A stretch of 64,000 bases of DNA from Candidatus Moraniibacteriota bacterium (lineage in GTDB: Bacteria > Patescibacteriota > Minisyncoccia > Moranbacterales > UBA2206). Where the stretch lies: contig JAUXSK010000018.1 of the NCBI GenBank assembly GCA_030679995.1, positions 121,492 to 185,491 of the forward strand. The letters are read 5' to 3'. The position numbers were made by a program, and so were the translations under genes. Below, one piece after another: positions 1,916-35,088 of this stretch. How positions within the stretch are numbered: the first letter of the stretch is position 1; every line of letters begins with the position of its first letter. The notes beneath the pieces were generated by a model. It saw only the letters and a program-made list of their open reading frames with translations, did not search any database and was not told the DNA's origin.

Positions 1916-4900
1916 ATGAAAAAAAATCCAATTTTGTTTTTATTTATTGCAGGCCATATTGTTTTTGGCTTGTTTTTTTTTAAAATAGAGGTCAACAGGA
2001 CGCTAGCTAGTTCTGAATTTGAGGTTAGTGAAAAAACCAGTCCTGTTTTTTCAACGCTAATTCCTGATCAGGCTTTTGTAATTAAGGATGATACTAATTA
2101 CAAGGTCTATTATGCTGGAGATGATTTTATTTCGATTAATCTGGCTCAATCGCCGGATGGTATAAATTGGACACCGTATTCTGGCAATCCTATTGTCAAT
2201 GATGCTCAATATCACGCTAATGTAAAGTTTTTCAATTCCGGATTTTCAGGTGAAAATATTGGAGATAATCCAAGCTCCGACATGATGTATTATAGGATGT
2301 GGTATGCGGGCTTGAATCAAAATAGCATAGCCGGGTGGAGATATGCCGAATCACCGGATGGAATCAGCTGGTATAACCGTATCAATGTTTCACAGTTTGG
2401 ACCGGCGGTATATAGTGCGCAAACAGGAGTGACATATGGAATTGCGGATGTGGTTTATACTGCGGGAGCGTCAAATAGTGGAATGGATTGGACTTTTAGG
2501 ATTTATGCAAATGTACAGTGGGAGGCAGGTGATTTTGCCGGCAAAGAACTCGTTGTGATGGCTTTTTCAAGCGATGGCTATAATTGGACCGGATATGACC
2601 CCACCTCGGTTGGCTATGCAACTCCAGTATTTAAGGGGACTCTTATTAGCGGTGATTTCGACAGTGATCATATTGGCTGGTTTAAGGTTATTAAAAATAA
2701 TCCAACTTTTTGGGAGGCTTTTTATTCTGGTGGAGCCGACACAACCTATCAATCATTGAATGGAATAGGTTATGCCTCATCAACAGATGGAATCAATTGG
2801 ATACGCGGGCAGAAACTATTTTCTACGGAAGATTCAATGTTATGGAGAAAAAGAAGTGTTTGGATGCCTTCAGTGGTAAAAACAGCCTCCAATTATCAAG
2901 TTTGGTTTTTGGGATCGGATAACTCTGATATCGCAAGTTCTGATTGGATTCAGTGGAAATTGGGTTTGGCAAATTTAGTGATGATTGCTCCGATAATATC
3001 TGACACTTCACCGGCAGATGCTGCAATAAATATTTCGACAACCGGAAATATTACTGCCTCCTTTAATGGAATAATGGATTCTTCAACAATAAATTCATCA
3101 ACATTTACTCTGGCCAAAGGCGCGACACCGATTGCTGGATCTGTCAGTTATGCAGGAACAACAGCGACTTTTATGTCGGCAAATGATCTTTTGCCTTTCA
3201 CTGAATATACTGCCACGGTGACAACGGGCGTCAAAGATATTTCCGGAGTAGCATTAAGTTCTGATTATTCGTGGACTTTTACGACCGGCCGATCCTATAT
3301 GGATTGGAATGACCAAGGCGTTGTTTTTACTGCTCCTTCTTCGGGTGACGCATATTATCCCAGTGTTATTTATAATGCCGGCGGATTTGGTGGCATTCAA
3401 CCGGCATATTCTATGTGGTATTCAGACGGATCGGGTGCTGTGTATATAACTAGATCTTCGGATGGTGTAACTTGGGATAATCCGACAGCAACGGTTGGGC
3501 TGGTTGGTGCCCATCATGCGCAGATTTTGTATGATGAAGATTGTTTCGGAACAGTTCCCTGTACGGATGGTACGATAAAATATCGAATTTGGTTTTGGGA
3601 TATTTCAAAATTATATAGTATTTCCGCGATAGCTACGGCTGAATCCGTTGATGGAATGAATTGGACTAACCAGCAATCATTGACTCAAGATGCATCTTTG
3701 AAATTAATTCAGGATCCTGATTCGGGTATCGGTTGGAACAGAGGCAGCTATGGTCCGGTATCTTTATTTTATCAATCGGATGCATCTAATACCGGCAATG
3801 AACCATGGAATTATCGATACGTAATGTATTACAACGGCACAGACGGCAGTTCGGAAGGTACCGGACTTGCATATTCCTCGGATGGCGTGTATTGGTCGGC
3901 ATATTCATCCAATCCAATTTTAGCTGGTTCTTCTGTGGCAGGCTGGGATTGTTTGAGTTCTTCCTATGGAACCGTACTTAGGGATTCTGCGGGTTTCCAC
4001 TATTTTTTTAGCGGTCGCGGCATGGATGATGGTGCGGGGGGTTGCGCCTATCCTTCAAGTTTTGATGGCATTGGCTATGCGTATTCAGTCGATGGTAAAA
4101 CTTGGATCAAAAGTTTGGATAATCCGATATTTCATATAAGCGATGGAGTGGCATATCGTGATGAACGAATTTATACGCCATCTGTCATAAATGACGCTAC
4201 GGGAATTTTAAAAATGTATTTTTCCGCAAAACAAACAGACCAGCCAAAGAAAATCGCTTATGCTACCATAGCACCTTTGAGTGAATCAAAAGCCATTACA
4301 TCTTTTAGTTTTCCGGAGGGAACGGGTGTCATTAATGAAACCGCTTACACAATCGCAGTGGAAGTATCTTCCGGTTCGGATTTAAATGCTCTTGTGCCAA
4401 CGATTGTCATCAGTGGAATATCAATCAGTCCGCGTTCCGACATCGCCCAAGATTTTACTTCGCCGGTCATATATAAAGTCACTGCTGAGAATGGAACGAC
4501 TCAAGAATATCTGGTTACGGTTACGGAAAAAGCTGAAGACGAAGATGAAGACGAAGATGAAGACGAAGACGAAGACGAAGATGAAGACGAAACAAAATCA
4601 TCAGATCATAAAAATAATTCGGATAAGAAAACAAAAAAAAATCCAGCAGCAACAACTACAACAGCCGAGACAATGACAGGCATAGCAGCACTGGAGGCGT
4701 TGGGCATGGGTGAGGCGGCACCGGGAATAACAATTGATGGCATACCTGTGGCATCTAGTGAAAAAAATCCCCTTACGGACGAAAAGTATAAATTTAACTG
4801 GATTTGGGTGATCATAGGTATTGTGTTGTTCATATTGCTGTTGATAATTCTTTTTGCTAAAAAACAAAAGAATAAATTCAAATTTTATTTCGCATCTCCA

Positions 4901-5161
4901 GCAGTTACCGGAATTGTTGATGAAACAGCCAAGACTGTTAAGTTTACTGTGCCTTTCGGCACTAATGTGAGTGCTCTTGTTCCAACAATCAAACTTTCTG
5001 ACGGCGCGTCAATCCGTCCGCGTTCCGACATCGCCCAAAACTTTACTTTGCCGGTCGTATATAAACTCACTGCTAGGGACGGAGTGACTCAATCGTACAC
5101 AGTTACGGCAAAGGTTGCTTCTAGGTCGGAATTCAACGCCAAAACAAAGGGGACAGCCTAA
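1916..5161 (+). CDS. Very large secreted/membrane-anchored multidomain protein (1081 aa). Domains in order: N-terminal signal anchor; about 8 S-x-D-G-x-x-W propeller-blade motifs (GH43/GH130/BNR-like beta-propellers); an Ig-like domain; a duplicated ~75-aa C-terminal module; an (ED)n acidic tract; a late TM helix.
   Basis: GGGGAG SD. N-terminus MKKNPILFLFIAGHIVFGLFFF. Propeller motifs include SPDGINWT, SPDGISWY, SSDGYNWT, STDGINWI, SSDGVTWD, SVDGMNWT, SSDGVYWS and SVDGKTWI. EDEDEDEDEDEDEDEDE is followed by the TM helix WIWVIIGIVLFILLLIILF. The two related modules read ...LVPTIVISGISISPRSDIAQDFTSPVIYKVTAENGTTQEYLVTVT and ...LVPTIKLSDGASIRPRSDIAQNFTLPVVYKLTARDGVTQSYTVTA. Confidence 0.8.
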   Translation: MKKNPILFLFIAGHIVFGLFFFKIEVNRTLASSEFEVSEKTSPVFSTLIPDQAFVIKDDTNYKVYYAGDDFISINLAQSPDGINWTPYSGNPIVNDAQYHANVKFFNSGFSGENIGDNPSSDMMYYRMWYAGLNQNSIAGWRYAESPDGISWYNRINVSQFGPAVYSAQTGVTYGIADVVYTAGASNSGMDWTFRIYANVQWEAGDFAGKELVVMAFSSDGYNWTGYDPTSVGYATPVFKGTLISGDFDSDHIGWFKVIKNNPTFWEAFYSGGADTTYQSLNGIGYASSTDGINWIRGQKLFSTEDSMLWRKRSVWMPSVVKTASNYQVWFLGSDNSDIASSDWIQWKLGLANLVMIAPIISDTSPADAAINISTTGNITASFNGIMDSSTINSSTFTLAKGATPIAGSVSYAGTTATFMSANDLLPFTEYTATVTTGVKDISGVALSSDYSWTFTTGRSYMDWNDQGVVFTAPSSGDAYYPSVIYNAGGFGGIQPAYSMWYSDGSGAVYITRSSDGVTWDNPTATVGLVGAHHAQILYDEDCFGTVPCTDGTIKYRIWFWDISKLYSISAIATAESVDGMNWTNQQSLTQDASLKLIQDPDSGIGWNRGSYGPVSLFYQSDASNTGNEPWNYRYVMYYNGTDGSSEGTGLAYSSDGVYWSAYSSNPILAGSSVAGWDCLSSSYGTVLRDSAGFHYFFSGRGMDDGAGGCAYPSSFDGIGYAYSVDGKTWIKSLDNPIFHISDGVAYRDERIYTPSVINDATGILKMYFSAKQTDQPKKIAYATIAPLSESKAITSFSFPEGTGVINETAYTIAVEVSSGSDLNALVPTIVISGISISPRSDIAQDFTSPVIYKVTAENGTTQEYLVTVTEKAEDEDEDEDEDEDEDEDEDETKSSDHKNNSDKKTKKNPAATTTTAETMTGIAALEALGMGEAAPGITIDGIPVASSEKNPLTDEKYKFNWIWVIIGIVLFILLLIILFAKKQKNKFKFYFASPAVTGIVDETAKTVKFTVPFGTNVSALVPTIKLSDGASIRPRSDIAQNFTLPVVYKLTARDGVTQSYTVTAKVASRSEFNAKTKGTA
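4535..4590 (+). repeat. In-frame tandem hexanucleotide repeat (gaagac/gaagat), about 9 units, encoding the (ED)n tract.
   Basis: gaagacgaagatgaagacgaagatgaagacgaagacgaagacgaagatgaagacgaa. Confidence 0.85.
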
Positions 5162-5230
5162 TAAAAAAACACCTAACACCACCAATCGTTCGATGTAAAT
5201 AATATTTTTTAATTTTAAACAACCAATATT

Positions 5231-6391
5231 ATGAACCAAAAAAGCATTATCGTAATTCTAGGATTTATTATCGTCTTCCTGACAGGCATAGTCGTATATT
5301 TTACAATAATAAATAAAGCGAATCAGCCAATTGATTCATCAGCACAACGTCAATCCATATCTTCACTGGAAAAAAATGAGATCGCATCTACGCAGATATC
5401 CGCGCCTGCTATAAAATTCGAGGGGCGGTATATAGATGTGCATACGCATATCATGCCGTCGGGGATGTCTCTCGAAGAGATGCTTAAAAATATGGATATT
5501 GAAGGTATCGATACTATGATAATAATGGAGACTCCAACGTCGATTTATATGGGAAAATCTCAAGAGGAGTATGGGATTCCAAGCGCTTCAGAAAAATATC
5601 CAAATAGATTCATCTCATTGTACGGAGGAGAGGCGATGACTCTGCTTGATATCGTTATCAAGAAAGGAGGATATACCCAATCACAAGAAGAAAAATACAC
5701 CGCTCTTCTTGAAGACGCAATGAAATCGGGTAAATACAAGGGCTTTGGAGAGATTGCGTTGAGACATATATCGCTTGGAGGAGAAGGAGCTGATGTGACT
5801 ATTCCAGGAGATCATCCATGGATGTTTATTATGAGCGATATCGCAGCTAAGTATGATTTGCCAATTGATATACATATGGATGTTGCAACTGCGAACGAAG
5901 GAATAGCTGGTCTTGAAAAACTTCTTGATCATAATAAAAACACAAAAATTATTTGGTCCCATACAGCTTGGTCAAGGACTGATTATAAATCTGGATCCAT
6001 TGAATTGATGCGGCGGTTATTTGAGAAACATCCGAATTTATATTCAAGCGTCAAAATCCAGACCGAAACTGCATTTATGGATGGCGGGGTGGGGATGAAG
6101 CAGCAGCCGCAAAAGGGAGCGGGCAGGGGAGAAAAACAACTGAGCTCCGGAAATGGCGGGACAAAACCATCACCACAGCAAGGACTAACCAGCGGAATCA
6201 ATCTTGAATGGTTGGCTTTATTCAAAGAATATCCAGAACGCTTTATGATGGGAAGTGATATAAAGCCCGGGGAAAGGCCAAATGAGTTCGCATACATAAA
6301 AGCTCACAGAAAATTTTTGGAACAATTACCCGCTGAAATTCTTAAACAGATTGAAAGAAATAATGCCAAAGAAATTTTTAAAATTAATTGA
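5231..6391 (+). CDS. Membrane-anchored amidohydrolase-2 family (TIM-barrel metal-dependent hydrolase) with a Gly/Gln-rich low-complexity insertion.
   Basis: N-terminal TM helix. The motifs YIDVHTHIMP and DIHMD are metal-binding His/Asp motifs typical of PF04909. The insertion MDGGVGMKQQPQKGAGRGEKQLSSGNGGTKPSPQQG lies at about 6085..6200. Confidence 0.6.
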   Translation: MNQKSIIVILGFIIVFLTGIVVYFTIINKANQPIDSSAQRQSISSLEKNEIASTQISAPAIKFEGRYIDVHTHIMPSGMSLEEMLKNMDIEGIDTMIIMETPTSIYMGKSQEEYGIPSASEKYPNRFISLYGGEAMTLLDIVIKKGGYTQSQEEKYTALLEDAMKSGKYKGFGEIALRHISLGGEGADVTIPGDHPWMFIMSDIAAKYDLPIDIHMDVATANEGIAGLEKLLDHNKNTKIIWSHTAWSRTDYKSGSIELMRRLFEKHPNLYSSVKIQTETAFMDGGVGMKQQPQKGAGRGEKQLSSGNGGTKPSPQQGLTSGINLEWLALFKEYPERFMMGSDIKPGERPNEFAYIKAHRKFLEQLPAEILKQIERNNAKEIFKIN

Positions 6392-6677
6392 GCTTAATTT
6401 GTAAATTTAAAGGCACTGTCGTAATTAGACTGGATTATGGATATCCGACCCCTTTATTTCCGCGGATTTTATCTTCCGCCAGAGCCAAGGTCGCCGAAGC
6501 GATTGTGGAAGGGAAGGCATTAAAAATCGAAGAGTAATGGAAAGTATGCTATAATCTAGCCATACAAACAAGTTAAAAAAGTCACGCCGTTTATTTTTTC
6601 GGTTCCATCCTCTTTTGTTGTCCTATCCGATTGGCGATGTGAAGCAAATAAATTAATAATTATTAAAAAACGAAAAG

Positions 6678-7343
6678 ATGAAAAAAACACTACTGATTGC
6701 TTTTTTCCTGGTGTTTGGAATGGCCGTCCAAGCCCAAGCGTCAAGCGCGAACCCTAACCAAGGTTCGAAGCCGGAGCAGGCTAATCCCCAGGTAAGCCAA
6801 ACTGGGAACGCCGTCCAAGTCCAAGAAAAAAACGAGGTTAAAAACCAAGGGGAAGAAACTCAAATCCAAACCCAAGAACAGAACGAGGTTGTGGCTAAAG
6901 ACAAAAAAGAAAACAAACCCCAGGATGCTGCCGAATTGCACAGGAGTGCGGTGGCTAATTTTGTCCAAGGTTTATTAGCCATAGCTGACAGGGAAGGCGG
7001 AATCGGGCAGGAGGTGAGGGTGATCGCCCAACAGCAAAATGATGTGAAAGATCGGGCGGCCGACTTGATATATGCCGTTGAAAATAGGAGCGATGTGAAA
7101 ACATTCTTCATAGGCACGAGTTATAAAAATTTGGGAGAATTGCGGGGCCAGACGGTCCAAGCCAGGAATCAAATCGAGCAATTGAAGCGGTTGGCTGACA
7201 AGGCGGACAACGAGCAGAACAGGATCGAATTGCAAGCGCAAATCCGGACGCTGGAGCAAGAGCAGGTGAATATCGATAATTTTATCGCTCAAAATGAAAA
7301 CAAATTCAGCGTATTCGGTTGGGCAGTGAGGCTTTTCCGATAA
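6678..7343 (+). CDS. Secreted coiled-coil protein with an N-terminal Q/N/E-rich repetitive region.
   Basis: Signal peptide MKKTLLIAFFLVFGMAVQAQA. Imperfect repeats NAVQVQEKNEVKNQGEETQIQTQEQNEV. Heptad-like C-terminal half. Confidence 0.55.
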   Translation: MKKTLLIAFFLVFGMAVQAQASSANPNQGSKPEQANPQVSQTGNAVQVQEKNEVKNQGEETQIQTQEQNEVVAKDKKENKPQDAAELHRSAVANFVQGLLAIADREGGIGQEVRVIAQQQNDVKDRAADLIYAVENRSDVKTFFIGTSYKNLGELRGQTVQARNQIEQLKRLADKADNEQNRIELQAQIRTLEQEQVNIDNFIAQNENKFSVFGWAVRLFR

Positions 7344-7372
7344 TTCTATCTTTTTGGGATAACCATAAAAAA

Positions 7373-7394
7373 CCGCCGGCAAGGGCGGTTTTTT
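7373..7394 (+). terminator. Rho-independent terminator.
   Basis: ccgccggcaagggcgg followed by tttttt. Confidence 0.75.
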
Positions 7395-7513
7395 GCTGAT
7401 TGGAAGATGGATATGCCAATTTTTTCTCCCGTTGCGGGACATTGTCCGGATAGGGGGCATTCCTCCGTCCGGGCGGTATTTTTTATCCTGAAAAAGTACC
7501 GGTATCCGGACCA

Positions 7514-7542
7514 TTGACATATCCGCCAGGCGGGCGTATCAT
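7514..7542 (+). promoter_or_regulatory. Sigma70-like promoter for the arsR operon.
   Basis: TTGACA, 17 nt spacer, TATCAT. A perfect palindrome GGACAtTGTCC lies about 80 nt upstream and is a candidate operator. Confidence 0.5.
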
Positions 7543-7569
7543 TCTAATATAAATTAGGATGATATACAT

Positions 7570-12035: not shown

Positions 12036-13124
12036 ATGATGCGGATAATTAGAGAAAATAGGCGTAAAGTCTTTATTTCCATTTTTTTACTGGGACTGGC
12101 GATTATTCTGGTCTCTTTCCGGGAAGGCGAAAAGAGCCTGGGTGGTTTCGTCGCGGAAAAACAGGCGGTTACGGTGGGTGTTGAAAAAATCGAAGATTTG
12201 AAAGAATCGCGCGATCGGATCAAATATCCGGCGGTTGTCGCCGGCGATCAGGAAATAAATATTATGGCAGGAGCAGGTGGGACGGCGGCCGCGGTGGATT
12301 TCCGCTTGGGTGATCAAGTGGCGCGCGGAAAAATCCTGGTCCGGATCGATGATCCGGCTGGGTTGGTCGGGATAGGCAAAGAAGGGTTTGCCAGCGGCCA
12401 GATCCAACAGTTGGAAAACGCGTTCAAACAAGCCGATGAGGCTTATGACCAGGCTAAACGGAATTATGATAAGGATGATACGAAAGATAATAAGACTGCC
12501 AAGGATATCGCCAAATTACAAAAACAAAACGCGCAGATCGCGCTTGATGCGGCGATGGACAGCCGCTTGGTCAAGGCGCCGATCGCCGGTTATGTGACTG
12601 CTAAAAATATCGCGGTCGGCGATTCGATTTCGGCCGGACAAATTTTGGCAACCGTTTCCAGACCTGAGAAGATTAAGATCAAATTTTATGTGAGCCAGGA
12701 AGAATTGGCGAATGTGAAGGCGGGGGATATGGTAACCGTCGATAACGGCGACAAGGAGGTCCGAGCTAAGATTGCCAATGTTTCCATCCAAGCTGACGCG
12801 GTGACAAAGAGATTTTTGGTAGAGGCGGTGCCGTCTGAGGTCGGCGCTTTGGCTATCGGGACGGTCGTTGATGTTTTTGTCGATGCCCGACGGGAAGTTT
12901 CGGATGATGATTCGATAATATTGCCGCTTTCCGCCGTGACAGTCGGACAGAATGAAACATATCTGTTCATCGCGGAAGACGGGCAAGCCAAGAAGAATCC
13001 TGCGGAAATCGTGAAAATTTTCGGGGAGAATGCCGAAGTGCGGACTGATCTTGCGGCCGGAAGCCTGGTCATTATCGATGGAAGCCGGCTGGTCCAAGAC
13101 GGGAATAAAATAACCATACAATAA
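12036..13124 (+). CDS. RND efflux periplasmic adaptor (HlyD/MFP family).
   Basis: N-terminal TM helix, biotinyl-lipoyl-like and beta-barrel regions, and an interrupted coiled coil. It is immediately followed by the RND pump gene 2 nt downstream. Confidence 0.75.
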   Translation: MMRIIRENRRKVFISIFLLGLAIILVSFREGEKSLGGFVAEKQAVTVGVEKIEDLKESRDRIKYPAVVAGDQEINIMAGAGGTAAAVDFRLGDQVARGKILVRIDDPAGLVGIGKEGFASGQIQQLENAFKQADEAYDQAKRNYDKDDTKDNKTAKDIAKLQKQNAQIALDAAMDSRLVKAPIAGYVTAKNIAVGDSISAGQILATVSRPEKIKIKFYVSQEELANVKAGDMVTVDNGDKEVRAKIANVSIQADAVTKRFLVEAVPSEVGALAIGTVVDVFVDARREVSDDDSIILPLSAVTVGQNETYLFIAEDGQAKKNPAEIVKIFGENAEVRTDLAAGSLVIIDGSRLVQDGNKITIQ

Positions 13125-13125
13125 T

Positions 13126-16100
13126 ATGTCCGAAGGCAACAAATCTTCCGATTATCAATATCTTGAAAAACTGGAATTCCGTCCGGAACTCCGGAAAGGT
13201 TTTTTGAATTTTTTTATCACCAATTTCCGGGTGGTAGTCCTTTTGATGTTGTTGTTGGCCGGCGTGGGAATCTATGCCTATATCGCCTTGCCGGTCGAAT
13301 CCGATCCGGAGGTGAAAATACCGATCGCGGTAGTAACGACGGTTTTCCCCGGGGCGTCGCCGGCTAACGTCGAAGATTTGGTGACAAAGAAATTGGAAAC
13401 GGAAATCGCAGGCCTCAAAGATATCAATAAGGTCACGTCCAATTCTTCCAATTCGATTTCTTCCATCACGGTGGAATTCGATGCTAATGCCGATTTGGAG
13501 GGCAGTATCCGAAAATTGCGGGATGCCGTCAATGATGCCAAAGAAAAAATGCCCGAAGATGCCAATGATCCGGCCGTCACCGAAATATCAGTTGATGATA
13601 CGCCGATTTTTTCCGTTTCGATCGCCGGACCTTATGATGGTTTCGTTTTGCGGGATTTTGCCGAAGACGTCCAAACTGAATTGGAAAAGATTTCCGGCGT
13701 GCGCGAGGTGATGGTTTCAGGCGGGGATGAACGCGAATTTGAAATCGCTTATGATCCGGAAAAGCTGGTTTTTTACGACCTGTCGCCATTGGAGGCTAAT
13801 CGGATCGTGGCGGAAGCTAATTCGCAGATTCCGGGCGGAAATTTCCAGGGAAGCGAATATAATTATGCCATCCGGATAGACGCGCGTTTTTTTGATGCGG
13901 AAGCTTTGGGGAATATCCCGGTTTTCCACACGGCTGACGGCGCGATAGTCTATCTTAAAGATATGGCGGAAGTGCGGGATCGGGCTATCAAAAAAACCGT
14001 TTTTTCCCGGTTTTCCCGCCAGGGGGAAAAGCCGTCCGATAGTGTGAATATCGATATTATCAAAAAGACCGGCGGCTCGATCATCAAGACGGCCGATGCG
14101 TCGAAAACGAAGCTGGATGAGATGATCAAAGACGCTCCGGCCGGCATAACCTATGACATCACTATCGATACGGCCAAGGAAATCAGGAAAAATTTCGACC
14201 AATTGGTGCATGATTTCACATTGACGATCATTTTGGTTTTCGCGATCCTATTTTTGGTCATCGGGCTCAAGGAAGCGCTGGTGGCGAGTTTGGCGATCCC
14301 GCTGGTTTTTTTCGCGACTTTCGGCGTGATGCTCGAGGTCGGAATCAGCTTGAACTTCCTTTCGATGATCTCGCTTATCTTGGCGCTCGGGCTTTTGGTG
14401 GATGACGCGATCGTCGTGGTGAGTGCTACCAAGCAATATCTCCGGACCGGAAAATTCACGCCGGAAGAGGCGGTTCTCCTGGTGTTGAACGATTTCAAAG
14501 TGGTCCTGTTCACTACGACCCTTACGACCGTTTGGGCTTTCTTGCCTTTGCTTTTCGCCAGCGGCATTATGGGACAATATATCCGTTCTATTCCGATTAC
14601 GGTTTCGGTGACGCTCTTGGCGTCCCTGGCTATCGCCCTGGTTATAAACCATCCGTTGGCGGCGGTGCTTGAGCGCGTGCGCCTGACCCGCAAGGCATTT
14701 TTCGCATATTTGGCCCTTGTGATATCCGCGGGAATTTCCAGCTGGTATGTTCCGGACTTGATTGCCAAGACCGGGCTTTTGTCTGTCAGTGCGATTGCGA
14801 CCTATTGGATGCTGGATTGGTATTTCCGGCAAGGGAAAGCCGTGCTGCAAGCCAATGCCGGATTGATGGAACGCGAATGGCGCGACGATGGATTGATCAA
14901 AGAAAAATTGCGGTCCCAAGGCGATCATAAAGACGGCGCGTTTTTGTCGCGGCTGATCCACGGCATCATCCGTTTCGACCGGCTGATTCCGGTTTATGAA
15001 AAATATCTGAGAAAGATTCTGGTTACGAAAAAAAGAAGGTTGATGACGATAATTTCGGTAATCATTTTGTTTTTGGCGGCGGTCGCTTTGCCGATCGTCG
15101 GGGTGGTCAAGAGTGAATTTTTTCCGGTTACGGACGCGGAGCTGATGTTCGTGAATATCGAGGCGCCGGTGGGATTGCGGTTGGAAGAAACCGGCAAAAT
15201 CGTGTCACAAGTGGAAGAGAGGTTGTCCGTTTATCCGGAAATCGTCAGTCTATCCACGGTCATCGGCAGCGGCGGATCCAGCGGTAATTTCGTAAACAGT
15301 TCGGCGAGTCCTTCGCATCGGGCTCAAATCACGATCAAACTCCAAGAAGAAGAGAATCGCAAACTCAAGTCCTATGAATTCGCTGAAGTTGTCCGGCGGG
15401 ATATCGCCGATATCCAAGGGGCGGCTATCACTGTCCAGACCCTAAGCAACGGTCCGCCGTCCGGATCGGCTTTTGAAGCGCAGATTATGGGCGAGGATTT
15501 GGATGTTTTGGACGGCATCGCCCAAGATTTGAAGCCCGTGCTGGCTTCCGTTCCGGGAGTCGTGGACGCGGAAATCTCATTGAAAAATTCCCCGGCTGAT
15601 TATGTTTTCTTGTTAGACCATAATCGGATGGAACTTCTCGGCGTCGATGCTTCGCAAATCGGATTGACGATGCGGATGGCGATTTCCGGCACGGAAGTGA
15701 CTGAGATAATCAAAGGGGGTGATGAGATAAAAGTCGTAGCCCGTTTTGGGGAAGAAAAAATCCCTGATTTGGAAACTTTGCAAAACTTGCAAATAAAAAA
15801 TAATGCCGGAAAATCGATTTTCTTACGGGATGTCGCGCAAATCAGATTGGAGCCGTCAGTCGATAAGATCACTCGCATCAACCAGCGGCGGGCAGTGTTG
15901 CTTTCAGCGGGCGTGAGCGGTGGGACTCCTGCTACTGCCGTTGTCGCGGAATTTCAAAATAAGGCAAAGGATTATGATTTGCCCCAAGGCTACGAGATAG
16001 TCTATGGCGGGGAGAACGAACAGAGTGCCGAATCGGTGCAATCGATTATCCGCGCGATGGTCATCGCATTGATCTTGATCATCGCGACCTTGGTCATCCA

Positions 16101-16524
16101 GTTCAACTCTTTCAAAAAAACTTTCATCGTGCTGGTGACCATCCCGCTGGCGCTTATCGGTGTTTTTTTCGGCCTGGCGCTGTTCGGGGTCAGCCTCAGT
16201 TTTCCGGGCCTCATCGGAATAGTGGCGCTGTTCGGAATCGTGGTCAAAAACGCGATTATCCTGGTGGACAAGATCAATCTTAATATCCGGACCGGCATCG
16301 TTTTTTTCGAAGCGGTCATCGACGCCGGGAAATCGCGTTTGGAAGCGATTTCCATCACTTCCATCTGCACTATCGCCGGCATCACGCCTGTCACGCTTTC
16401 CAATGAAACTTGGCTGGCGATGGGTTCGACCATAATCTTCGGGCTGTTGCTATCTTCCTTTCTGACGCTTTTCGTCATCCCGACCTTGTATGTGATGCTG
16501 GTCGATAATGATCCTGGGCGCTGA
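13126..16524 (+). CDS. RND superfamily efflux permease (AcrB/HAE1-like, 1132 aa).
   Basis: 12-TM topology with two large periplasmic loops. Typical AcrB N-terminus (FFITNFRVVVLLML) and conserved TM4/TM10 regions. No outer-membrane factor gene is nearby. Confidence 0.9.
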   Translation: MSEGNKSSDYQYLEKLEFRPELRKGFLNFFITNFRVVVLLMLLLAGVGIYAYIALPVESDPEVKIPIAVVTTVFPGASPANVEDLVTKKLETEIAGLKDINKVTSNSSNSISSITVEFDANADLEGSIRKLRDAVNDAKEKMPEDANDPAVTEISVDDTPIFSVSIAGPYDGFVLRDFAEDVQTELEKISGVREVMVSGGDEREFEIAYDPEKLVFYDLSPLEANRIVAEANSQIPGGNFQGSEYNYAIRIDARFFDAEALGNIPVFHTADGAIVYLKDMAEVRDRAIKKTVFSRFSRQGEKPSDSVNIDIIKKTGGSIIKTADASKTKLDEMIKDAPAGITYDITIDTAKEIRKNFDQLVHDFTLTIILVFAILFLVIGLKEALVASLAIPLVFFATFGVMLEVGISLNFLSMISLILALGLLVDDAIVVVSATKQYLRTGKFTPEEAVLLVLNDFKVVLFTTTLTTVWAFLPLLFASGIMGQYIRSIPITVSVTLLASLAIALVINHPLAAVLERVRLTRKAFFAYLALVISAGISSWYVPDLIAKTGLLSVSAIATYWMLDWYFRQGKAVLQANAGLMEREWRDDGLIKEKLRSQGDHKDGAFLSRLIHGIIRFDRLIPVYEKYLRKILVTKKRRLMTIISVIILFLAAVALPIVGVVKSEFFPVTDAELMFVNIEAPVGLRLEETGKIVSQVEERLSVYPEIVSLSTVIGSGGSSGNFVNSSASPSHRAQITIKLQEEENRKLKSYEFAEVVRRDIADIQGAAITVQTLSNGPPSGSAFEAQIMGEDLDVLDGIAQDLKPVLASVPGVVDAEISLKNSPADYVFLLDHNRMELLGVDASQIGLTMRMAISGTEVTEIIKGGDEIKVVARFGEEKIPDLETLQNLQIKNNAGKSIFLRDVAQIRLEPSVDKITRINQRRAVLLSAGVSGGTPATAVVAEFQNKAKDYDLPQGYEIVYGGENEQSAESVQSIIRAMVIALILIIATLVIQFNSFKKTFIVLVTIPLALIGVFFGLALFGVSLSFPGLIGIVALFGIVVKNAIILVDKINLNIRTGIVFFEAVIDAGKSRLEAISITSICTIAGITPVTLSNETWLAMGSTIIFGLLLSSFLTLFVIPTLYVMLVDNDPGR

Positions 16525-27057: not shown

Positions 27058-29145
27058 ATGGTTTTTAATTATAAAATATTTATTATAGCTTTTGTTTTGA
27101 TCCTCTTTTTTATAGGGGGATTCAATATTTATTTTTCAAGAAAAAATATTGTAAAAAACAATCAAGTATCTGTCGAGCAATCAGATATATATCAAAAAAT
27201 AATAAATGAAGATATAAATAAATTAGAGCAAAAAACTGCCTTGACGGGCAAGATATATGTCGATGATCCTAATATCCCAGCGCCCACCAACCAGTGGTTC
27301 AGCTCAGTGATATTTGAAAAGACATCGCAACCTATATTCGCTTATCCGATGGCTGTGAAAATGAATAATGATGGGTTTGGGTTTTCCTATCCATCGGTTG
27401 TTTCAACGCAAGATACTGTTTTCGCTTCGTATAAATCTGATTTGAAAGTAGTTTTTCAAAAAAATGAGCTTGTTTCTAGTGTTTCATCTTTTGATGATAT
27501 GTCAGTCGGTGTTTTGCAAAAAAACGGAGAAAATACCATTTCAAAACTTAAAATTACGCACGGATCTCCTTTCGTATATATTTCGGTGTTGCCAGGCGAG
27601 TCTTTTAATATCCAATCAGAAGAGTTGATTTTAATGGATAAAAGTGCGGATTATTTTGTGTTTGCGTCTGGTGGAAAATTTTTCGCATTTTTCCCATCTT
27701 TAAATGAAATGTCTGTGAAAAAAAATGATGATCACTCGATTACCGTTTCCAATGTCCGCAAAGAAGCTCTTATTTCAATCGCTGTTTTGCCAAATCTTGA
27801 ATGTCTGGATATTTTCAGCCAGTATGCATTGGATCCGATAATTGGCACAAACGTTGATTTTAATGTGACGGATAATCGGATCAGCACTAAATACGAAATT
27901 GTTACGAAGAGCGGAGGAAAAACACTTTTTGCTTTGTTGCCAAACAGTTACGATTCTTTTGAACAACAGTTGAAAAATCAGAATCCAATTGGGGAGTATG
28001 ACACACTCAGGGGTAAACAGTTATTGTACCAGGGAAGGATCTTTGATTTTTCAGAGGAAGCTGGGCCTATTCCACGACAACTGGAAGTGTCATTTTTATC
28101 GCATTCTGACAAGGAAAATTTACGTAATTTTATTAAGACAGATGCAGATAGGTTAACAGTCACTGAGAATGATACCTATTTTGTTGGAAAAAAACTTTTT
28201 GCTATGGCGAATGTCTTGGATATAGCGGAGCAGCTTGGTATGGAAAGAGAATCGGATATTTTGAAAATAAAATTAAAAACTGAGTTAGAAACATGGAAAA
28301 ATAATACGCTGGCTGGCGGACAGCAGAAAAAATATTTTTACTATGATCCGATAATCAAAGGAATCGTGGGGGAGACGGCTAGTTTCGGCAGTGAGTTATT
28401 TAATGATCATAATTTTCATTACGGATATTTTATCTATGCGGCAAGCATACTCTCGCGCTATGACAATAAATATCTGTCGGATAACCAAACTTTTATCAAT
28501 CTGCTGGTGAAGGATATCGCCAATAATGACCGCGATGACAAAACATTTCCGTATCTGAGGGGTTTTGATGCTTATGAGGGACATAGTTGGGCTTCAGGCT
28601 TTGGGATGTTTGCTGACGGCAATAATCAGGAATCAAGTTCCGAGGCAGTCAACGCATGGTACGCATTGTATTTGTGGAGCGATATTATCGGAAATAAAAA
28701 TCTCAAGGAGACGGCGGAATATTTATATTTTAAGGAATCATCAAGCGCATTGGATTATTGGCTCAATATTGATAAGGGGGATTTGCGTTTTGAAAATTTC
28801 CAACATTCCATGGTAGCGCTTGTTTGGGGTGGAAAATTGGATTTTGCGACTTGGTTCAGTCCGCATCCAGAGGCTATGCTGGGAATCCAATTGATTCCGT
28901 TCAGTCCCGCTAGCGGTTATTTGGGGCGTGATGCGGGGCGTGTCCAGGAAAATTTGTCGTCAGAAAACGCTTTTCAGAGTCCCGCACTATTCAAGGATTA
29001 TCTGGCGATGTACCGGGCGTTTTATGATGTTACCGGAGCAAGGCAAATGATAGATAAATTGAAGCCAACAGACATCGATAGCGCGAATTCAAGGAGTTTT
29101 ATGGAGGCTTGGTTGCTTGTTCTCGAAAATAAGGAAAATCATTAA
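27058..29145 (+). CDS. Membrane-anchored GH81-like endo-beta-1,3-glucanase.
   Basis: N-terminal TM helix. NDHNFHYGYFIYAAS and NNQESSSEAVNAWYALYLW resemble the GH81 catalytic-region motifs (DHHFHYGY; E-x-S-S-E pair) as I recall them. Confidence 0.55.
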   Translation: MVFNYKIFIIAFVLILFFIGGFNIYFSRKNIVKNNQVSVEQSDIYQKIINEDINKLEQKTALTGKIYVDDPNIPAPTNQWFSSVIFEKTSQPIFAYPMAVKMNNDGFGFSYPSVVSTQDTVFASYKSDLKVVFQKNELVSSVSSFDDMSVGVLQKNGENTISKLKITHGSPFVYISVLPGESFNIQSEELILMDKSADYFVFASGGKFFAFFPSLNEMSVKKNDDHSITVSNVRKEALISIAVLPNLECLDIFSQYALDPIIGTNVDFNVTDNRISTKYEIVTKSGGKTLFALLPNSYDSFEQQLKNQNPIGEYDTLRGKQLLYQGRIFDFSEEAGPIPRQLEVSFLSHSDKENLRNFIKTDADRLTVTENDTYFVGKKLFAMANVLDIAEQLGMERESDILKIKLKTELETWKNNTLAGGQQKKYFYYDPIIKGIVGETASFGSELFNDHNFHYGYFIYAASILSRYDNKYLSDNQTFINLLVKDIANNDRDDKTFPYLRGFDAYEGHSWASGFGMFADGNNQESSSEAVNAWYALYLWSDIIGNKNLKETAEYLYFKESSSALDYWLNIDKGDLRFENFQHSMVALVWGGKLDFATWFSPHPEAMLGIQLIPFSPASGYLGRDAGRVQENLSSENAFQSPALFKDYLAMYRAFYDVTGARQMIDKLKPTDIDSANSRSFMEAWLLVLENKENH

Positions 29146-29154
29146 TAACATAAT

Positions 29155-31215
29155 TTGAAAACATTTATGCAACAACTAATTAAAAATAAAAACATATCCA
29201 GGATAGCGGCATACCTGTGGTTGGTTTTGGGTGAGATGTCTACGCTTGCGGCGATTATCGCTGTCGGATGGTTTTTGATTGGTTATTATGCGCATTTCGA
29301 ATTTTTGCAAACTGGCTATCAGGATTGGATTTATCATGCCTTTCGAGTTCAGGATATTTCTCAGTTCGGTATCGCTTCCTGGGATCATATTTGGAGCGGC
29401 GGTATAAATCATTGGCGAGCGTTTCAATATATTGAGCATATGCTTACTTATGGCGTGGTAAACCTAACTGGAATGTCTATTACGCATGCCATGCTTTGGA
29501 TATCGATAGTTGTTTTTATCGCATTACGTGTTTTTATGTATGGGGTACTCAGGTATTTGAAAATAAGCCGCTTGTTTAGCGCTGTCGCTGTTATTGTTTC
29601 ATTTGCATTTTCTCAACAGTGGACGGCCCTAAAGGAGTTTTCTATTTTTGTGGGTTTTATCGTGGTTCCGTTATATGTGTTGCTTTGGATTGCGACTTTA
29701 AAATCAATGCGCTATGTTTTTTTGCTTGCCGCTATCACCGGAGCGTCTTGGTCGATACACCCTGTCGTAGGTTATAGTATGTCCGGTATGCTCCTATTTC
29801 TCGTGCTTGCTAATAATCTCAAAAAGGACATAAGAAAATTGATGCTGGTTGTATTAGTATATTTCGTCAGTTCAATGCCATTCACAATACCGTATTTTTT
29901 TTCGGGATACAGCGTCAGTAATTTATTTTATGTTACGCCGCAGTTTTTGCGAATGTTGCTTGTTCCTGAATATTTTGGATTGAGCCTGCTCTATTTTATT
30001 TTGCTTGCTGTGAGTTGGGTAATTATGGTTGTAAAATCAAGCGAATCACCTCGCTGGGCAAAAATACTACTCTTGTATTGCACGGTTTATTTGTGCTTTA
30101 TTTATTTTGGTTTATTGGGATATTTTCCAGTTTTTATCAATAAATTTCAATTCTCGCGTGCCATTCCATTTATTGCTTTGGTATTACCTTTTTGTTTTGC
30201 TGCTTTTTTTCAGACCGCTCTTCCAAATATTCGATCGCGTATGGCGTACGCGATATTTATTGTATTGATAGCTATTGGCATTTCACAATCGATTGAAATT
30301 GCGACACGATATTCCGGTCAGCCGATAGACTCGATTCAAGACCCGGTGGCAATATATTTTGCAAACAAAGAAGTGCCATATGGAAGCATATATTTCAAAG
30401 ATGTTACTGAGGCAAGTTATTTAGGGAAAACCGGGTTGCGTTTTATAACATCGTACAATCAGCATTTATTACCCAATCCGTACTCTATGCGCTTCGACGG
30501 ACTTATGAAAACTGACATTTCTTATACTGGCGTAACGGAACGTCAGATAAAAATGATCAATGATTATAGTCTTGTTTTGGGAGTCGAATATGTCTTCATT
30601 CCTAAACTCTCTCCGCTTGTGAATGGTTTGACTGTCAGTCAAGGGGATTTTGACGCTCTATTTGAAAATTTGGGAGAAGTCAATGTGCCTTCGGATGTTT
30701 TTGCAGTTTTGCGTAATCGCCAGCCGATTGCAAATGCGTATGCTTTCGATAAAAATAATATGGATAATTTTCTTCGTTTTTCGGAGATACCCAAACCGAC
30801 ATTGCAAATTGATTCATATAAGCTGTGGGATGACGAAATCAGTCGTATGGCGCAATTGATACGGTCAGGACAAATGAAATCATTGCCGATGAGCTTTGTT
30901 TGGCCAAATAAACTTGTGGTGGATGCGAAAGAAATTCAAGATATGAATCAGCCAAGTTTGTTGTTAACTCAGAGTTATGATCAGAATTGGACTATAGAAA
31001 ATGAAAAGTCAGCGATTAAACCGACAAATTTGCGATTTATGTCAGTCAATCTTCCCAAGGAAAAAATTTCTGATAAGGTGGTCTTATCGAACAACTGGCC
31101 GCGTTGGCACTGGCCTATCCAATCACTCGGCCTGGTTATGATTGTTGTCACCGGAATTATTGCGATATTTCGAAGGCATAAAATAATAAATTCTACTAAT
31201 AGGACTAATTTATGA
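29155..31215 (+). CDS. Large polytopic membrane protein with a C-terminal extracytoplasmic domain and a final TM helix, function unknown (synthase accessory subunit?).
   Basis: About 10 TM helices in the first 380 aa, then a ~280-aa soluble domain, then the TM helix LGLVMIVVTGIIAIF. A 4-nt overlap (ATGA) with the downstream GT2 synthase implies translational coupling. Confidence 0.6.
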   Translation: MKTFMQQLIKNKNISRIAAYLWLVLGEMSTLAAIIAVGWFLIGYYAHFEFLQTGYQDWIYHAFRVQDISQFGIASWDHIWSGGINHWRAFQYIEHMLTYGVVNLTGMSITHAMLWISIVVFIALRVFMYGVLRYLKISRLFSAVAVIVSFAFSQQWTALKEFSIFVGFIVVPLYVLLWIATLKSMRYVFLLAAITGASWSIHPVVGYSMSGMLLFLVLANNLKKDIRKLMLVVLVYFVSSMPFTIPYFFSGYSVSNLFYVTPQFLRMLLVPEYFGLSLLYFILLAVSWVIMVVKSSESPRWAKILLLYCTVYLCFIYFGLLGYFPVFINKFQFSRAIPFIALVLPFCFAAFFQTALPNIRSRMAYAIFIVLIAIGISQSIEIATRYSGQPIDSIQDPVAIYFANKEVPYGSIYFKDVTEASYLGKTGLRFITSYNQHLLPNPYSMRFDGLMKTDISYTGVTERQIKMINDYSLVLGVEYVFIPKLSPLVNGLTVSQGDFDALFENLGEVNVPSDVFAVLRNRQPIANAYAFDKNNMDNFLRFSEIPKPTLQIDSYKLWDDEISRMAQLIRSGQMKSLPMSFVWPNKLVVDAKEIQDMNQPSLLLTQSYDQNWTIENEKSAIKPTNLRFMSVNLPKEKISDKVVLSNNWPRWHWPIQSLGLVMIVVTGIIAIFRRHKIINSTNRTNL

Positions 31216-32744
31216 GCATAAAACTATTGAAACAATACGTGCCGCACGCACGCATCACGTCCGCTAAAATTCTCAGTATGACCACAGTCTTTCTTTTGGG
31301 CGCCCCGATGGTCGTGATTTATTATGGAGCTTTTGTTTTTAATCCTGCCAATGCGGATAATGTCTTTATGTATATAATCCAGGTGGTTGCGGATATTATC
31401 GCGATTATAGCGTTGCTTGGACTTTGGGTGACGGTTCTTATGGATGTGATAACCCAGCAACATCATCGCTCGCATCATTTTGATCCAGGTGATTTTCTTG
31501 TTGAAAAAAAACCGACTATAGATATATTCGTGACTGCTATGGGTGAATCTTTAGAGACTCTTGAAGAAACTCTTACAGCAGCGATAAATATGGATTATCC
31601 GCATAACACTTTTATTTTGGATGATGGTAAATCCGATGCTTTAAAGAAGTTTGCACAATCATTGGGCGTGATATATGTTGTTCGTCCAGACAGGAGGCAT
31701 GCTAAGGCAGGGAATGTCAATAATGGACTAAGATTCAGCAAAAGTGAATTTTTCGCAATTTTTGATGCGGATCAAGTGCCTAAAAAAGATTTTATTACCA
31801 GGTTGTTGCCATACATGAAAGATTCGAAAATGGCAATGGTCCAATCTCCCCAATATTTCGCCAATACGCATTCTTTCATTGCGGCTGGAACATCACAGGC
31901 CCAAGAAGTTTTTTATAAATATGTTTGTCCGGCAAAAAATATCTCTAACTCAGCTTTTTGTGTCGGGACGAATGTTGTTTTCAGGCGTAGCGCCATCGAA
32001 GATATCGGCGGGATAGCCCGCAACAATTCGGAGGATATCTGGACATCATACCAGCTTCATGAAAATGGCTGGCACACGATTTTTGTGAATGAGGTATTGG
32101 CAATCGGCGAGGCTCCGGCGACGGTAGTTTCATATTTCAAACAGCAAAGGCGCTGGGCTAAGGGAGGGCTTTCGATGCTTTTTACGAAAAATCCGCTTCG
32201 ATCAAAAAAATTAAATCTTGATCAAAAAATGCAATATTTTATTTCCAATTCATTTTTTCTAGTCGGTGTGTCCATCTTTGTTTATGTGCTTTTTCCGATC
32301 CTGTATCTTCTCTTCGGCATCAAGCCTCTTGATACCGAAAATGGCATCGTTTGGGTACTTCATTACGTTCCTTATTTTGCTTTGTATTATTCTTTGACGT
32401 ATTTATTTTTAGGCAGTATTCGGTTGGAAACTCTTTCGACAGCATTGGCAAGTTTTTACCCATATCTGCTTGGACTTTTTTCAGCTCTTTTCGATACGGA
32501 GCAAGTATGGGTGGCAACGACTTCAAGAAAAAATACGGAAGACGCTTTTATGAAATGGGCGTGGCCGCATGTGTTTATAATTTTTCTTTCTCTGTTTAGC
32601 CTGGTTGTCGGATGGTATAATCCATATAATTTTTGGACGACAGTATTCAATACGGCATGGGTTGTTTTGAATGCCTATTTGCTCTTTTTGTTTATAACTG
32701 GAGAAAAAAGAATTGTTAAAAATAGAAATAATATAATTCAATAA
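31212..32744 (+). CDS. Processive GT2 beta-glycan synthase (cellulose/curdlan/chitin-synthase-like).
   Basis: ILDDGKSD, FDADQVP and QQRRWAKGG (QxxRW) motifs; N- and C-terminal TM bundles. Confidence 0.75.
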   Translation: MSIKLLKQYVPHARITSAKILSMTTVFLLGAPMVVIYYGAFVFNPANADNVFMYIIQVVADIIAIIALLGLWVTVLMDVITQQHHRSHHFDPGDFLVEKKPTIDIFVTAMGESLETLEETLTAAINMDYPHNTFILDDGKSDALKKFAQSLGVIYVVRPDRRHAKAGNVNNGLRFSKSEFFAIFDADQVPKKDFITRLLPYMKDSKMAMVQSPQYFANTHSFIAAGTSQAQEVFYKYVCPAKNISNSAFCVGTNVVFRRSAIEDIGGIARNNSEDIWTSYQLHENGWHTIFVNEVLAIGEAPATVVSYFKQQRRWAKGGLSMLFTKNPLRSKKLNLDQKMQYFISNSFFLVGVSIFVYVLFPILYLLFGIKPLDTENGIVWVLHYVPYFALYYSLTYLFLGSIRLETLSTALASFYPYLLGLFSALFDTEQVWVATTSRKNTEDAFMKWAWPHVFIIFLSLFSLVVGWYNPYNFWTTVFNTAWVVLNAYLLFLFITGEKRIVKNRNNIIQ

Positions 32745-33903: not shown

Positions 33904-35088
33904 ATGAAAAAAATGATCAAAAGCGGACTCATCGTGCTCGCGGTCGCTGCAATTGCCGGGTATGGAACATACTCTTTCTTTAGCGACACAGAAACGTCTT
34001 CGGGAAACAATTTTACCGCAGGAGAAATCGACCTGACCGTGACCAATACTGGCAGCGCTACGGACGGCGCTTGTACGTTTGATAATACGCCAGGCGGACC
34101 GATTTTTAATTGTACTGATGTGAAGCCTGGAGACAATGGTGAAAGCACATTGAACTTCAACCTTACAAGCAATCCTGCTTGGGCTTGTATGTATGTGGAC
34201 AATGTTGTTGATAGTGATAATGGGTGCAACGATCCGGAATTGGCTGCTGAATCAGTTTGTACGGAAGATGGAAATGGTGAATTAGACAACGCTCTAATGC
34301 TGACTGTTTGGGTTGATGACGGCGCTGGAGATGGCGGAACAGCATGTAATAATATCCGAGACGGATCAGAAGAGGTAATTATAGGCAATCAGGCGTTAAG
34401 CTCTTTTGTGTTGCCAACGGGAGGCTATGTCCTTCCTATTTCAGACGCAAGTGCTGATTCTATGATGACCGCTCCAGTCCAACCGGGTGACCATTGTGTC
34501 GGTGTCGCGTGGAGTGTCGATCCAACAACAGGAAACGAAGTGCAGACAGATAAATTAGGTGGTGATCTGACCTTCTATGTTGAACAGGCAAGAAACAATG
34601 ATGGATTCACATGCGCGGCACATTTCACGCCTGCGGAAGGAGTGCAAACATTGACTCTTGAAAATGAGATACAGAATCCGACAGGACCTTGGACACCGAT
34701 TACCGGTGACGGGATACAAGGAACATTAGTTTGGCAAGGAGATGGAGATACATTTGATTACACTCTAACTGCGCAAGGATTACCTGCTAATTCATCATAC
34801 AGTTTGATTTATTATGCTGATCCTTACCCAGGTAATAATCCAGGTAAATTAATCGGAACACACATGACCGATGGAGATGGCGAAATCGATGCTGCTGGAA
34901 ATCCAGATTTAGGAATGGATTTGCCAGATCCTGCAGATGCTAACTTCGGGACTGGTGCTAAGATTTGGTTGATTCCAAGCAGTGCATATGATGCTGCGAG
35001 CAGTAGTATCATTTCTTGGACACCAGATACTACTACCTGGTTGTTCGAAGGTAATGTTTACATCCATTACAACGATACGAATAACTAA
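33904..35088 (+). CDS. TasA/camelysin-like secreted protein with a SipW-cognate signal peptide (paralog 1).
   Basis: MKKMIKSGLIVLAVAAIAGYGTYSFFSDTETSSGNNFTAGEIDL matches the SipW-cognate class motif. A paralog-conserved DVKPGDNGE...AWACMYVD block follows. Confidence 0.75.
   Translation: MKKMIKSGLIVLAVAAIAGYGTYSFFSDTETSSGNNFTAGEIDLTVTNTGSATDGACTFDNTPGGPIFNCTDVKPGDNGESTLNFNLTSNPAWACMYVDNVVDSDNGCNDPELAAESVCTEDGNGELDNALMLTVWVDDGAGDGGTACNNIRDGSEEVIIGNQALSSFVLPTGGYVLPISDASADSMMTAPVQPGDHCVGVAWSVDPTTGNEVQTDKLGGDLTFYVEQARNNDGFTCAAHFTPAEGVQTLTLENEIQNPTGPWTPITGDGIQGTLVWQGDGDTFDYTLTAQGLPANSSYSLIYYADPYPGNNPGKLIGTHMTDGDGEIDAAGNPDLGMDLPDPADANFGTGAKIWLIPSSAYDAASSSIISWTPDTTTWLFEGNVYIHYNDTNN

Follow-up and report, generated by a model that had tools for sequence, protein, structure and literature searches.

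A large surface protein of a Moranbacteria genome with an intact DUF5018-type module after its predicted membrane anchor

In this work, we analysed an open reading frame (ORF) of 1081 codons (positions 1916-5161) in a stretch of 64,000 nucleotides of contig JAUXSK010000018.1, from assembly GCA_030679995.1 of a Candidatus Moraniibacteriota bacterium. This stretch is referred to as the window; positions are those of the window unless a contig is named, and the gene and all of its features described here lie on the + strand. The frame is uninterrupted, and directly behind its TAA stop codon there is another TAA. An earlier note, made from the sequence alone, had described the product as a giant surface protein with two copies of one module and a hydrophobic helix placed before the last of them; with 1081 aa the protein is large and not giant. 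The features named in that note were all recovered at the positions given, and they go well beyond what chance would produce. The locus raises the question of why a domain of an extracellular type should stand after what appears to be a stop-transfer membrane anchor, and whether the copy in that position is a working domain, a passenger or an artefact. We suggest, with a probability of about 0.6, that this second copy, module 2, arose recently as a by-product when module-coding repeats recombined, and that it is tolerated as a passenger rather than being a working domain.

One module before and one after a predicted membrane helix

Both copies are recognized by the same domain model. Pfam DUF5018 (PF16410) matches the protein with 77 bits (cutoff 38.2) in two stretches, the better of which, residues 988-1070, is module 2. 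A custom profile, which was built from 296 homologue modules, gives 101.4 bits for module 1 (aa 793-871; 4292-4528) and 104.0 bits for module 2 (aa 988-1067; 4877-5116). The latter contains the peptides FYFASPAVTGIVDETAK and SDIAQNFTLPVVYK and is followed by a 14-residue C-terminal tail, ASRSEFNAKTKGTA, and the stop codon (5117-5161). In an AlphaFold2 model of residues 781-1081, with a mean predicted local distance difference test score (pLDDT) of 74.6, both copies of the repeated module fold with confidence into immunoglobulin (Ig)-like beta-sandwiches of identical strand order (pLDDT 90-97; approximately 95 for module 1 and 90 for module 2). With such a score and such a fold, the idea put forward earlier that the last module is decaying has to be given up. 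Foldseek matched the modules to the Ig domains of the levan-binding protein BT1761 (8aa2_G, 8a9y_G) and of BT_2081 (3hbz), and the beta-sandwich is shared with the DUF5018/DUF4960-associated Ig domains of Bacteroides in general (BT1761 8A9Y/8AA0/8AA2; BT_2081 3HBZ; 4JRL; 4HET), with E values of 2e-12 to 4e-04, 25-30% identity and a root-mean-square deviation of 1.6-3 Å. In the Bacteroides proteins these domains have a spacer or presentation role beside carbohydrate-active domains, to which that of the window modules may be likened; however, those proteins are outer-membrane lipoproteins with all of their domains on the outside, whereas in the window protein one copy comes after a membrane helix. 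For DUF5018 itself, we found passing mentions alone in the literature.

The predicted transmembrane stop-transfer helix comprises aa 962-981 (4799-4858; IWVIIGIVLFILLLIILFA corresponds to residues 963-981), and the basic cluster KKQKNK follows directly (aa 982-987; 4859-4876). The description of this segment as strongly hydrophobic was accurate: the 19-residue Kyte-Doolittle mean over residues 963-981 is 3.42, the sole other peak in the protein being the N-terminal one (2.33, residues 6-24), and a Hessa-type sum is -7.1 kcal/mol for the helix, +0.1 for residues 6-24 and at least +7 for all other windows. AlphaFold2 places one long helix at residues 956-982. Five Lys are found in the 15 residues C-terminal of the helix, and the net charge on its N-terminal side is 0. 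These sequence and model data support the assignment of the segment as a stop-transfer anchor, all of whose sequence properties it has, and of the protein as bitopic and type I-like. From the stop-transfer helix and the charge asymmetry it is predicted that module 2 is cytoplasmic, and module 1 is predicted to be extracellular, so that the extracytoplasmic location expected of a DUF5018 domain would apply to module 1 and not to module 2.

This arrangement was compared with that in 240 homologues, retrieved with the full protein and with its tail, and, for the order of the domains, in 270 module-bearing proteins. A C-terminal hydrophobic helix is present in 30 of the 240 homologues, and every one of these 30 stops 2-22 residues later, with an Arg/Lys-rich tail; anchors of a similar NWWF...LRR type, directly before the stop codon, recur among the homologues. 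A Dehalococcoidia protein, for example, ends in NWWFIVGVTAIILLAIALLIALRR and the Patescibacteria protein P0175 in ILKGNKKKVKKEVKQEPLIK, and in P0175 and P0171 the modules are followed by the helix, a basic tail of 18 aa and the stop. The helix-anchored homologues (P0175, P0171, P0019 and P0020-P0041, from Patescibacteria and Dehalococcoidia metagenomes) resemble the window protein in that they carry the propeller family and/or DUF5018-type modules and a single C-terminal hydrophobic helix with N/W-W at its start and basic residues behind it; unlike the window protein, they have no acidic dipeptide tract and no domain beyond that short tail. Judged by the ends of these relatives, the anchor of the window protein is therefore canonical, whereas the approximately 94 residues after its helix are not. 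A module after an internal membrane helix was seen in none of the 270 module-bearing proteins, many of which have a signal or lipoprotein peptide and then the module. That it is unusual for the same domain to lie on opposite sides of the membrane, as had been remarked before, is thus in agreement with all 30 helix-anchored homologues and all 270 sampled module proteins, the topology being a predicted one. An exhaustive HMMER search with residues 945-1081 found the module in at least 7477 clusters; its representatives are mostly long multi-module proteins and constitute an architecture sample, not a census. No relative was found in the GTDB representative genomes when these were scanned with peptide patterns from the protein, and there is no synteny with the closest GTDB metagenome-assembled genome (MAG), whose MetK is 86% identical to the window MetK (L003).

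The reading frame through helix and module 2 is intact in three assemblies. The two others were found through a search with the downstream amidohydrolase and then among the contigs on which close relatives of that enzyme are encoded. Two Logan contigs from SRR13727519 are identical to the window, L091 up to 4576 (1916-4576 of the ORF) and L090 over 4552-7554. The third source, a 3475-bp contig of another Candidatus Moranbacteria MAG (L084; GCA_034366505.1), is 99.1% identical over 3463 nt and codes for the last 632 residues, that is for module 1, the Glu-Asp tract, the linker, the helix, KKQKNK, a nucleotide-identical module 2 and the stop; the only amino-acid substitution, S1071P, lies in the C-terminal tail.

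Origin of module 2 and alternative readings

Modules 1 and 2 are 56% identical at the protein level (E 6e-27) and have the unusual PRSDIAQ and YK.TA signatures in common. Since identities with modules of unrelated organisms are 54-63%, the two are no closer to each other than to those. At the nucleotide level, their similarity is distributed unevenly: the 5' 37 codons are 54% identical with saturated synonymous sites (pS 0.77), whereas the 3' 37 codons are 77% identical (dS 0.32, dN 0.27), and within these regions positions 4421-4520 of module 1 and 5009-5108 of module 2 are 81% identical, with 90-97% over a central core of about 20 codons. The simple duplication proposed earlier does not account for close similarity that is limited to these 100 nt or so at the 3' end, next to a 5' half that is synonymously saturated. 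The mosaic looks like a short gene-conversion tract between long-diverged modules and not like a recent whole-module duplication. In the shared 3' tract, dN/dS is approximately 0.8, which hints at relaxed constraint, although this value is based on about 26 changes only and on paralogues instead of orthologues. No further module copy or paralogue that could have been the donor of module 2 was detected by tblastn of the window.

Two other ideas about the history of the region were tried and rejected. The first, which came from a MAFFT alignment, was that the linker is a decayed third module; it scored -0.3 bits with the module profile, and none of the six frames of 4520-4890 gave a match. The second was a tandem duplication of an entire module-linker-helix unit with later truncation; when the DNA of 5109-5232 was compared with that after module 1, the local score was 17, against a shuffle mean of 19.

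The explanation that we favour can be set out as follows. An N-terminal signal would direct Sec export of a surface glycan protein of this member of the Moranbacteria, which belong to the candidate phyla radiation (CPR/Patescibacteria). Two propellers, a Big_5 domain and one DUF5018-type module would be located on the outside, and a disordered stalk of approximately 85 residues, first acidic and then Lys/Thr-rich, would space this ectodomain from the membrane, its (ED)n part growing and shrinking by units of GAAGAY through replication slippage. Translocation would be halted by the 20-residue helix and KKQKNK, so that module 2 and the 14-residue tail would remain in the cytoplasm. Module 2 probably reached its place by recombination among module-coding repeats, and a short tract would later have been exchanged between it and module 1 by conversion. 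As a lineage-specific appendage, module 2 would be dispensable for anchoring. Several observations speak against this explanation. Module 2 is without any of the decay that is eventually expected of a useless appendage, and its 95 codons are free of stops, for which the chance probability is approximately 0.007. The two strains, with zero substitutions in module 2, are too close to gauge selection, and the dN/dS value in the young tract comes from few changes between paralogues. In addition, the relatives sampled represent a few hundred of the 7477 or more clusters, and the arrangement may therefore exist elsewhere.

Among the alternatives, the one that survives best is that module 2 is a working cytoplasmic domain, which clusters the protein, tethers a partner or couples binding on the outside to an event on the inside. 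Such a role would be consistent with a module that is fully intact, scores slightly above module 1, has remained close to the family consensus in a 5' half that diverged anciently from module 1 and is retained in two strains; reading the region as coding also leaves a gap of 70 nt to the next gene, compared with 355 nt otherwise. However, the arrangement occurs in no other sampled protein, the structural relatives are without exception domains of extracellular lipoproteins, conservation between strains that are 99% identical is uninformative and the dN/dS of the recently shared tract is approximately 0.8. We therefore regard a working cytoplasmic domain as unlikely, and as somewhat less likely again the more specific idea that the same module is deliberately used on both faces of the membrane, with the cytoplasmic copy serving as a folded handle for partner pairing or clustering.

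A different way in which the appendage could be harmless is that a sortase-like enzyme cuts at NPLTD (aa 951-955; 4766-4780) and attaches the ectodomain to the wall, the helix and module 2 being lost in the process. The pentapeptide is situated in the linker, six residues before the helix, the homologue P0019 has NPATF in a similar position, and we take NPLTD to resemble SrtB-type NPxTx motifs. However, the motif is non-canonical with its final D instead of G or N, there is no LPXTG in the protein, and NPLTD is missing from the anchors of the Dehalococcoidia and Patescibacteria homologues. Nor was a sortase domain found among the 30 window ORFs scanned, and the basic cluster, followed as it is by 94 residues, is not at the extreme C-terminus. 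As five residues picked post hoc are weak evidence, we consider processing at this site quite improbable.

An indel artefact also had to be weighed, because a single extra A in the run of six A residues (A6) at 4859-4864, inside the KKQKNK codons, would give a protein of 986 aa with the textbook anchor ending ...LFAKKTKE before a stop, just as in the 30 homologues; the true gene would then end after the helix, and 4877-5161 would be an untranslated remnant or a separate gene. However, the contig of another assembler (L090) and the MAG of another strain (L084) agree with the window in both the A6 run and the frame, and module 2, for all its intact 95-codon frame, comes without its own start codon, ribosome-binding site or signal. 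In DNA that is so AT-rich, chance alone would place an off-frame stop within five codons in approximately 25% of cases. A frameshift that makes 4860-5161 a separate gene, the outcome which the earlier note had named as fatal to its own description, is therefore very unlikely, and we give this alternative next to no weight. No greater weight is due to the production of a short form ending in ...KKTKE beside the long form through occasional -1 slippage, ribosomal or transcriptional, on A6. Four codons into the -1 frame there is a stop, but T AAA AAA C, as read in the frame of the gene, does not conform to the canonical heptamer X XXY YYZ, a run of six is short for transcriptional slippage and no stimulatory structure was seen, although none was looked for.

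The stalk, the ectodomain and the flanking genes

The stalk starts with the tract (GAAGAY)9GAA, which codes for (ED)9E (EDEDEDEDEDEDEDEDEDE; 4535-4591) and in which each unit is GAAGAC or GAAGAT. Translation gives 19 residues and not the 18 alternating Glu/Asp counted before. Tandem Repeats Finder describes 4535-4591 as 9.5 copies of a 6-nt unit (88% matches) or 5.2 copies of a 12-nt unit (94%), so that the repeat, which had been called perfect, is so at the level of GAAGAY and not at that of GAAGAC/GAAGAT. In the other strain (L084) the tract has 69 nt and codes for (ED)11E, compared with 57 nt and (ED)9E in the window. The order of the units, written as their second codons, also differs, being GAC, GAT, GAC, GAT, three GAC, GAT and GAC in the window and three GAC, GAT, two GAC, three GAT, a GAGGAT unit with the one GAG codon and a last GAC in L084. 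Because the 1831 nt of the rest of the gene that are shared with L084 differ at three sites only, the tract evolves far faster than its surroundings. The proposal of a spacer of variable length is hence borne out by a strain that is 99.1% identical, and the pattern between the strains has the signature of slippage, which we infer to be the mechanism. Logan contigs L091 and L090 end and begin, respectively, inside the tract with an overlap of 25 nt, the longest exact internal repeat being 24 nt; this contig break is compatible with read disagreement at the tract. Among the 240 homologues, there is no acidic run of eight or more residues and no dipeptide repeat, and a scan of JGI metagenomes for any coding version of WIWVIIGIVLFI gave no match.

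The tract is followed by a Lys/Thr/Ala-rich linker (aa 893-961; 4592-4798), as described in the earlier note, which calls it Lys/Thr-rich. Both tract and linker are predicted to be disordered (pLDDT 30-50), and the module profile matches nothing in the linker, whichever frame is read. The stalk is reminiscent of the staphylococcal Clf/Sdr proteins, in which an acidic dipeptide stalk that derives from a degenerate short tandem repeat is likewise placed between ligand-binding domains and a C-terminal anchor. The Ser-Asp repeat stalk of Clf/Sdr is a spacer (PMC3794999), and its length differs between strains (PMC3025037). However, Clf/Sdr have tens to hundreds of Ser-Asp units whereas the window protein and its relative in L084 have 9-11 Glu-Asp units, and the window protein further differs in the lack of LPXTG, in a membrane helix that is retained, in that no glycosylation system is implied and in the module after the anchor.

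The N-terminus, MKKN followed by PILFLFIAGHIVFGLFFF (1916-2014), is a predicted export signal or signal anchor with a candidate TLA/SS cleavage site; AlphaFold2 predicts a helix at residues 5-22, and signal-like N-termini are also found in homologues. The earlier note had assigned about 800 aa to propeller and Ig-like domains. This holds in outline, and more precisely the N-terminal 790 aa comprise two paralogous five-bladed beta-propellers, propeller 1 (aa ~35-350; 2018-2965) and propeller 2 (aa ~460-790; 3293-4285), with a Big_5 bacterial Ig-like domain between them (aa 357-457; 2984-3286; Pfam PF13205, E 3.3e-19, 70 bits, cutoff 23.6). A domain search thus recovers both DUF5018, in two stretches, and a Big-like model above cutoff. 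The propellers are 26% identical to each other (E 2e-17). In an AlphaFold2 model of residues 1-795, which was made from an alignment with 16 homologues (mean pLDDT 82.6), they lie on either side of the Big_5 sandwich, propeller 1 with a pLDDT of about 80-95. When compared with the PDB by Foldseek, the propellers matched the glycoside hydrolase (GH) BT_0996 (GH137) and members of GH130, GH43, GH32 and GH62 with 12-16% identity, target-normalised TM scores of approximately 0.6 (0.5-0.66) and E values of about 1e-9 to 1e-7. The fold is common to these enzymes, hydrolases and phosphorylases with five blades, and the window propellers, with no family model reaching its cutoff; unlike the five-bladed GH enzymes, the window protein has two propellers in one chain. 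There is a weak GH130-like sequence match at residues 275-333; no Pfam GH family matches the protein at E<=1, the NCBIfam model for beta-1,2-mannobiose phosphorylase gives 25.7 bits (cutoff 450) and homologues show a merely faint Glyco_hydro_43_rel. We regard the five-bladed propeller fold as established by the models, whereas the sequence does not place the protein in the GH130 or GH43 families.

Relatives with approximately 60% identity over the first 790 aa or so are common in metagenomes, and their tails differ: SLH repeats, PG_binding_1, a dockerin-like pair, other Ig domains or a C-terminal membrane helix follow. Tail swapping is therefore the norm in this propeller-bearing family. Some of the relatives have features of their own. 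In a Patescibacteria MAG (JAQUOF010000015.1; contig positions 1166-6257), the gene for P0175 comes directly after that for a 1267-aa protein with DUF5018 and Dockerin_1; P0175 has an N-terminal region that appears cohesin-like by eye, two DUF5018 modules and the C-terminal helix, and a dockerin-like DxNGDGxxD pair forms the end of P0007, which is homologous to the window protein. The neighbourhood of P0175 and the end of P0007 hint at surface scaffolding of the cohesin-dockerin type in CPR bacteria. The Dehalococcoidia proteins P0020-P0041 have the regular C-terminus P-x-N-T-N-W-W-F-(I/V)-G...L-I-A-L-R-R before the stop, a regularity that suggests a conserved signal for sorting or anchoring more than a helix of a generic kind.

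Upstream of the gene there is a promoter-like site, TTGATT-17-TACAAT (1831-1859), a consensus match only, with a regional count of such sites not above shuffle expectation, and two terminator-like hairpins (1614-1645 and 1802-1821) lie directly 5' of it. Several proteins encoded beside the big gene are identical to NCBI entries from a Candidatus Moranbacteria MAG, and the window MetK has its best match (86%) in a Candidatus Moraniibacteriota MAG, with other Patescibacteria next; the host is therefore a CPR bacterium. In the former MAG, the genes that flank the big gene code for MDP1833902 and MDP1833904, and the one accession number left free between them fits an annotation of the big gene as a single coding sequence. 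By exact look-up, neither the big protein (expected as MDP1833903; best homologue 62% identical) nor an ArsR-like neighbour protein was found in the protein collection. Between the window (5231-6391) and L084 (contig positions 1970-3130), 22 of the 1161 nt of the gene for the downstream membrane-anchored amidohydrolase are changed, and the two proteins differ by 12 amino acids; over the neighbouring 1.8 kb of the big gene there are just the three non-repeat differences. The contrast points to a boundary of recombination near 5161-5244 or, alternatively, to relaxed constraint on the amidohydrolase. On a contig whose amidohydrolase is 89% identical (L085), no relative of the big gene lies upstream of the amidohydrolase, and the same is true of another at 72% (L086); at this locus, the big gene appears to be confined to the species-level lineage of the window. 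L085 begins (1-30) with GGTTCGAATCC, by eye the 3' end of a tRNA gene. In the window itself, tRNA and Rfam scans were both empty, and two families of A-rich 20-27-mer repeats (D4 and D6) were judged to be due to chance.

Further along the window, a HlyD-type membrane-fusion protein and an AcrB-type RND transporter (12036-16524) adjoin genes for ZnuA/ABC zinc uptake, a cation-diffusion facilitator, ArsR and ArsP; to our knowledge, RND pumps are uncommon in CPR genomes. In a region (27058-32744) of 38-41% GC, compared with 47-51% in the surroundings, a gene of the beta-1,3-glucanase family GH81 precedes an ORF of 686 aa without Pfam match and a GT2/cellulose-synthase-like gene. A camelysin/Peptidase_M73-like protein (33904-35088) is encoded near a Peptidase_S24, signal-peptidase-like membrane protein (37699-38355), a TasA/SipW-like pairing with unannotated ORFs in between. 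Finally, a 390-aa ORF on the - strand (40333-41505) has a weak match to CsoSCA_cat, the carboxysome-shell carbonic anhydrase domain (27 bits, cutoff 21.5).

What the arrangement may mean for the biology of these bacteria

The building blocks of the protein are all of known kinds, and a length polymorphism such as that of the Glu-Asp tract is ordinary for tandem repeats. What is unusual is that an intact module of extracellular type stands after a stop-transfer anchor, an arrangement without precedent in approximately 300 sampled relatives. The lifestyle of CPR bacteria is one of attachment to other cells, and the proteins on their surface are likely to be tools of it; we know of almost no CPR surface protein that has been characterized. 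The comparisons made here describe a propeller-bearing surface family which freely exchanges its anchor, be it SLH, peptidoglycan-binding, dockerin-like or a membrane helix, and in which the length of an acidic stalk shifts between near-identical strains, and they suggest that module-repeat recombination can strand a domain of the outside type on the wrong side of the membrane. Should the inner copy prove functional, the protein would represent a new architecture and a new use of a domain family that until now has been known from outside cells alone, and if the module were indeed placed on both faces by design, a surface protein that binds or cuts glycans would be coupled, mechanically or informationally, to the inside of a CPR cell. 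If, on the other hand, the inner copy is non-functional, as we favour, the gene would illustrate cleanly, in a natural case, how modular surface genes undergo rearrangement and for how long a misplaced domain survives.

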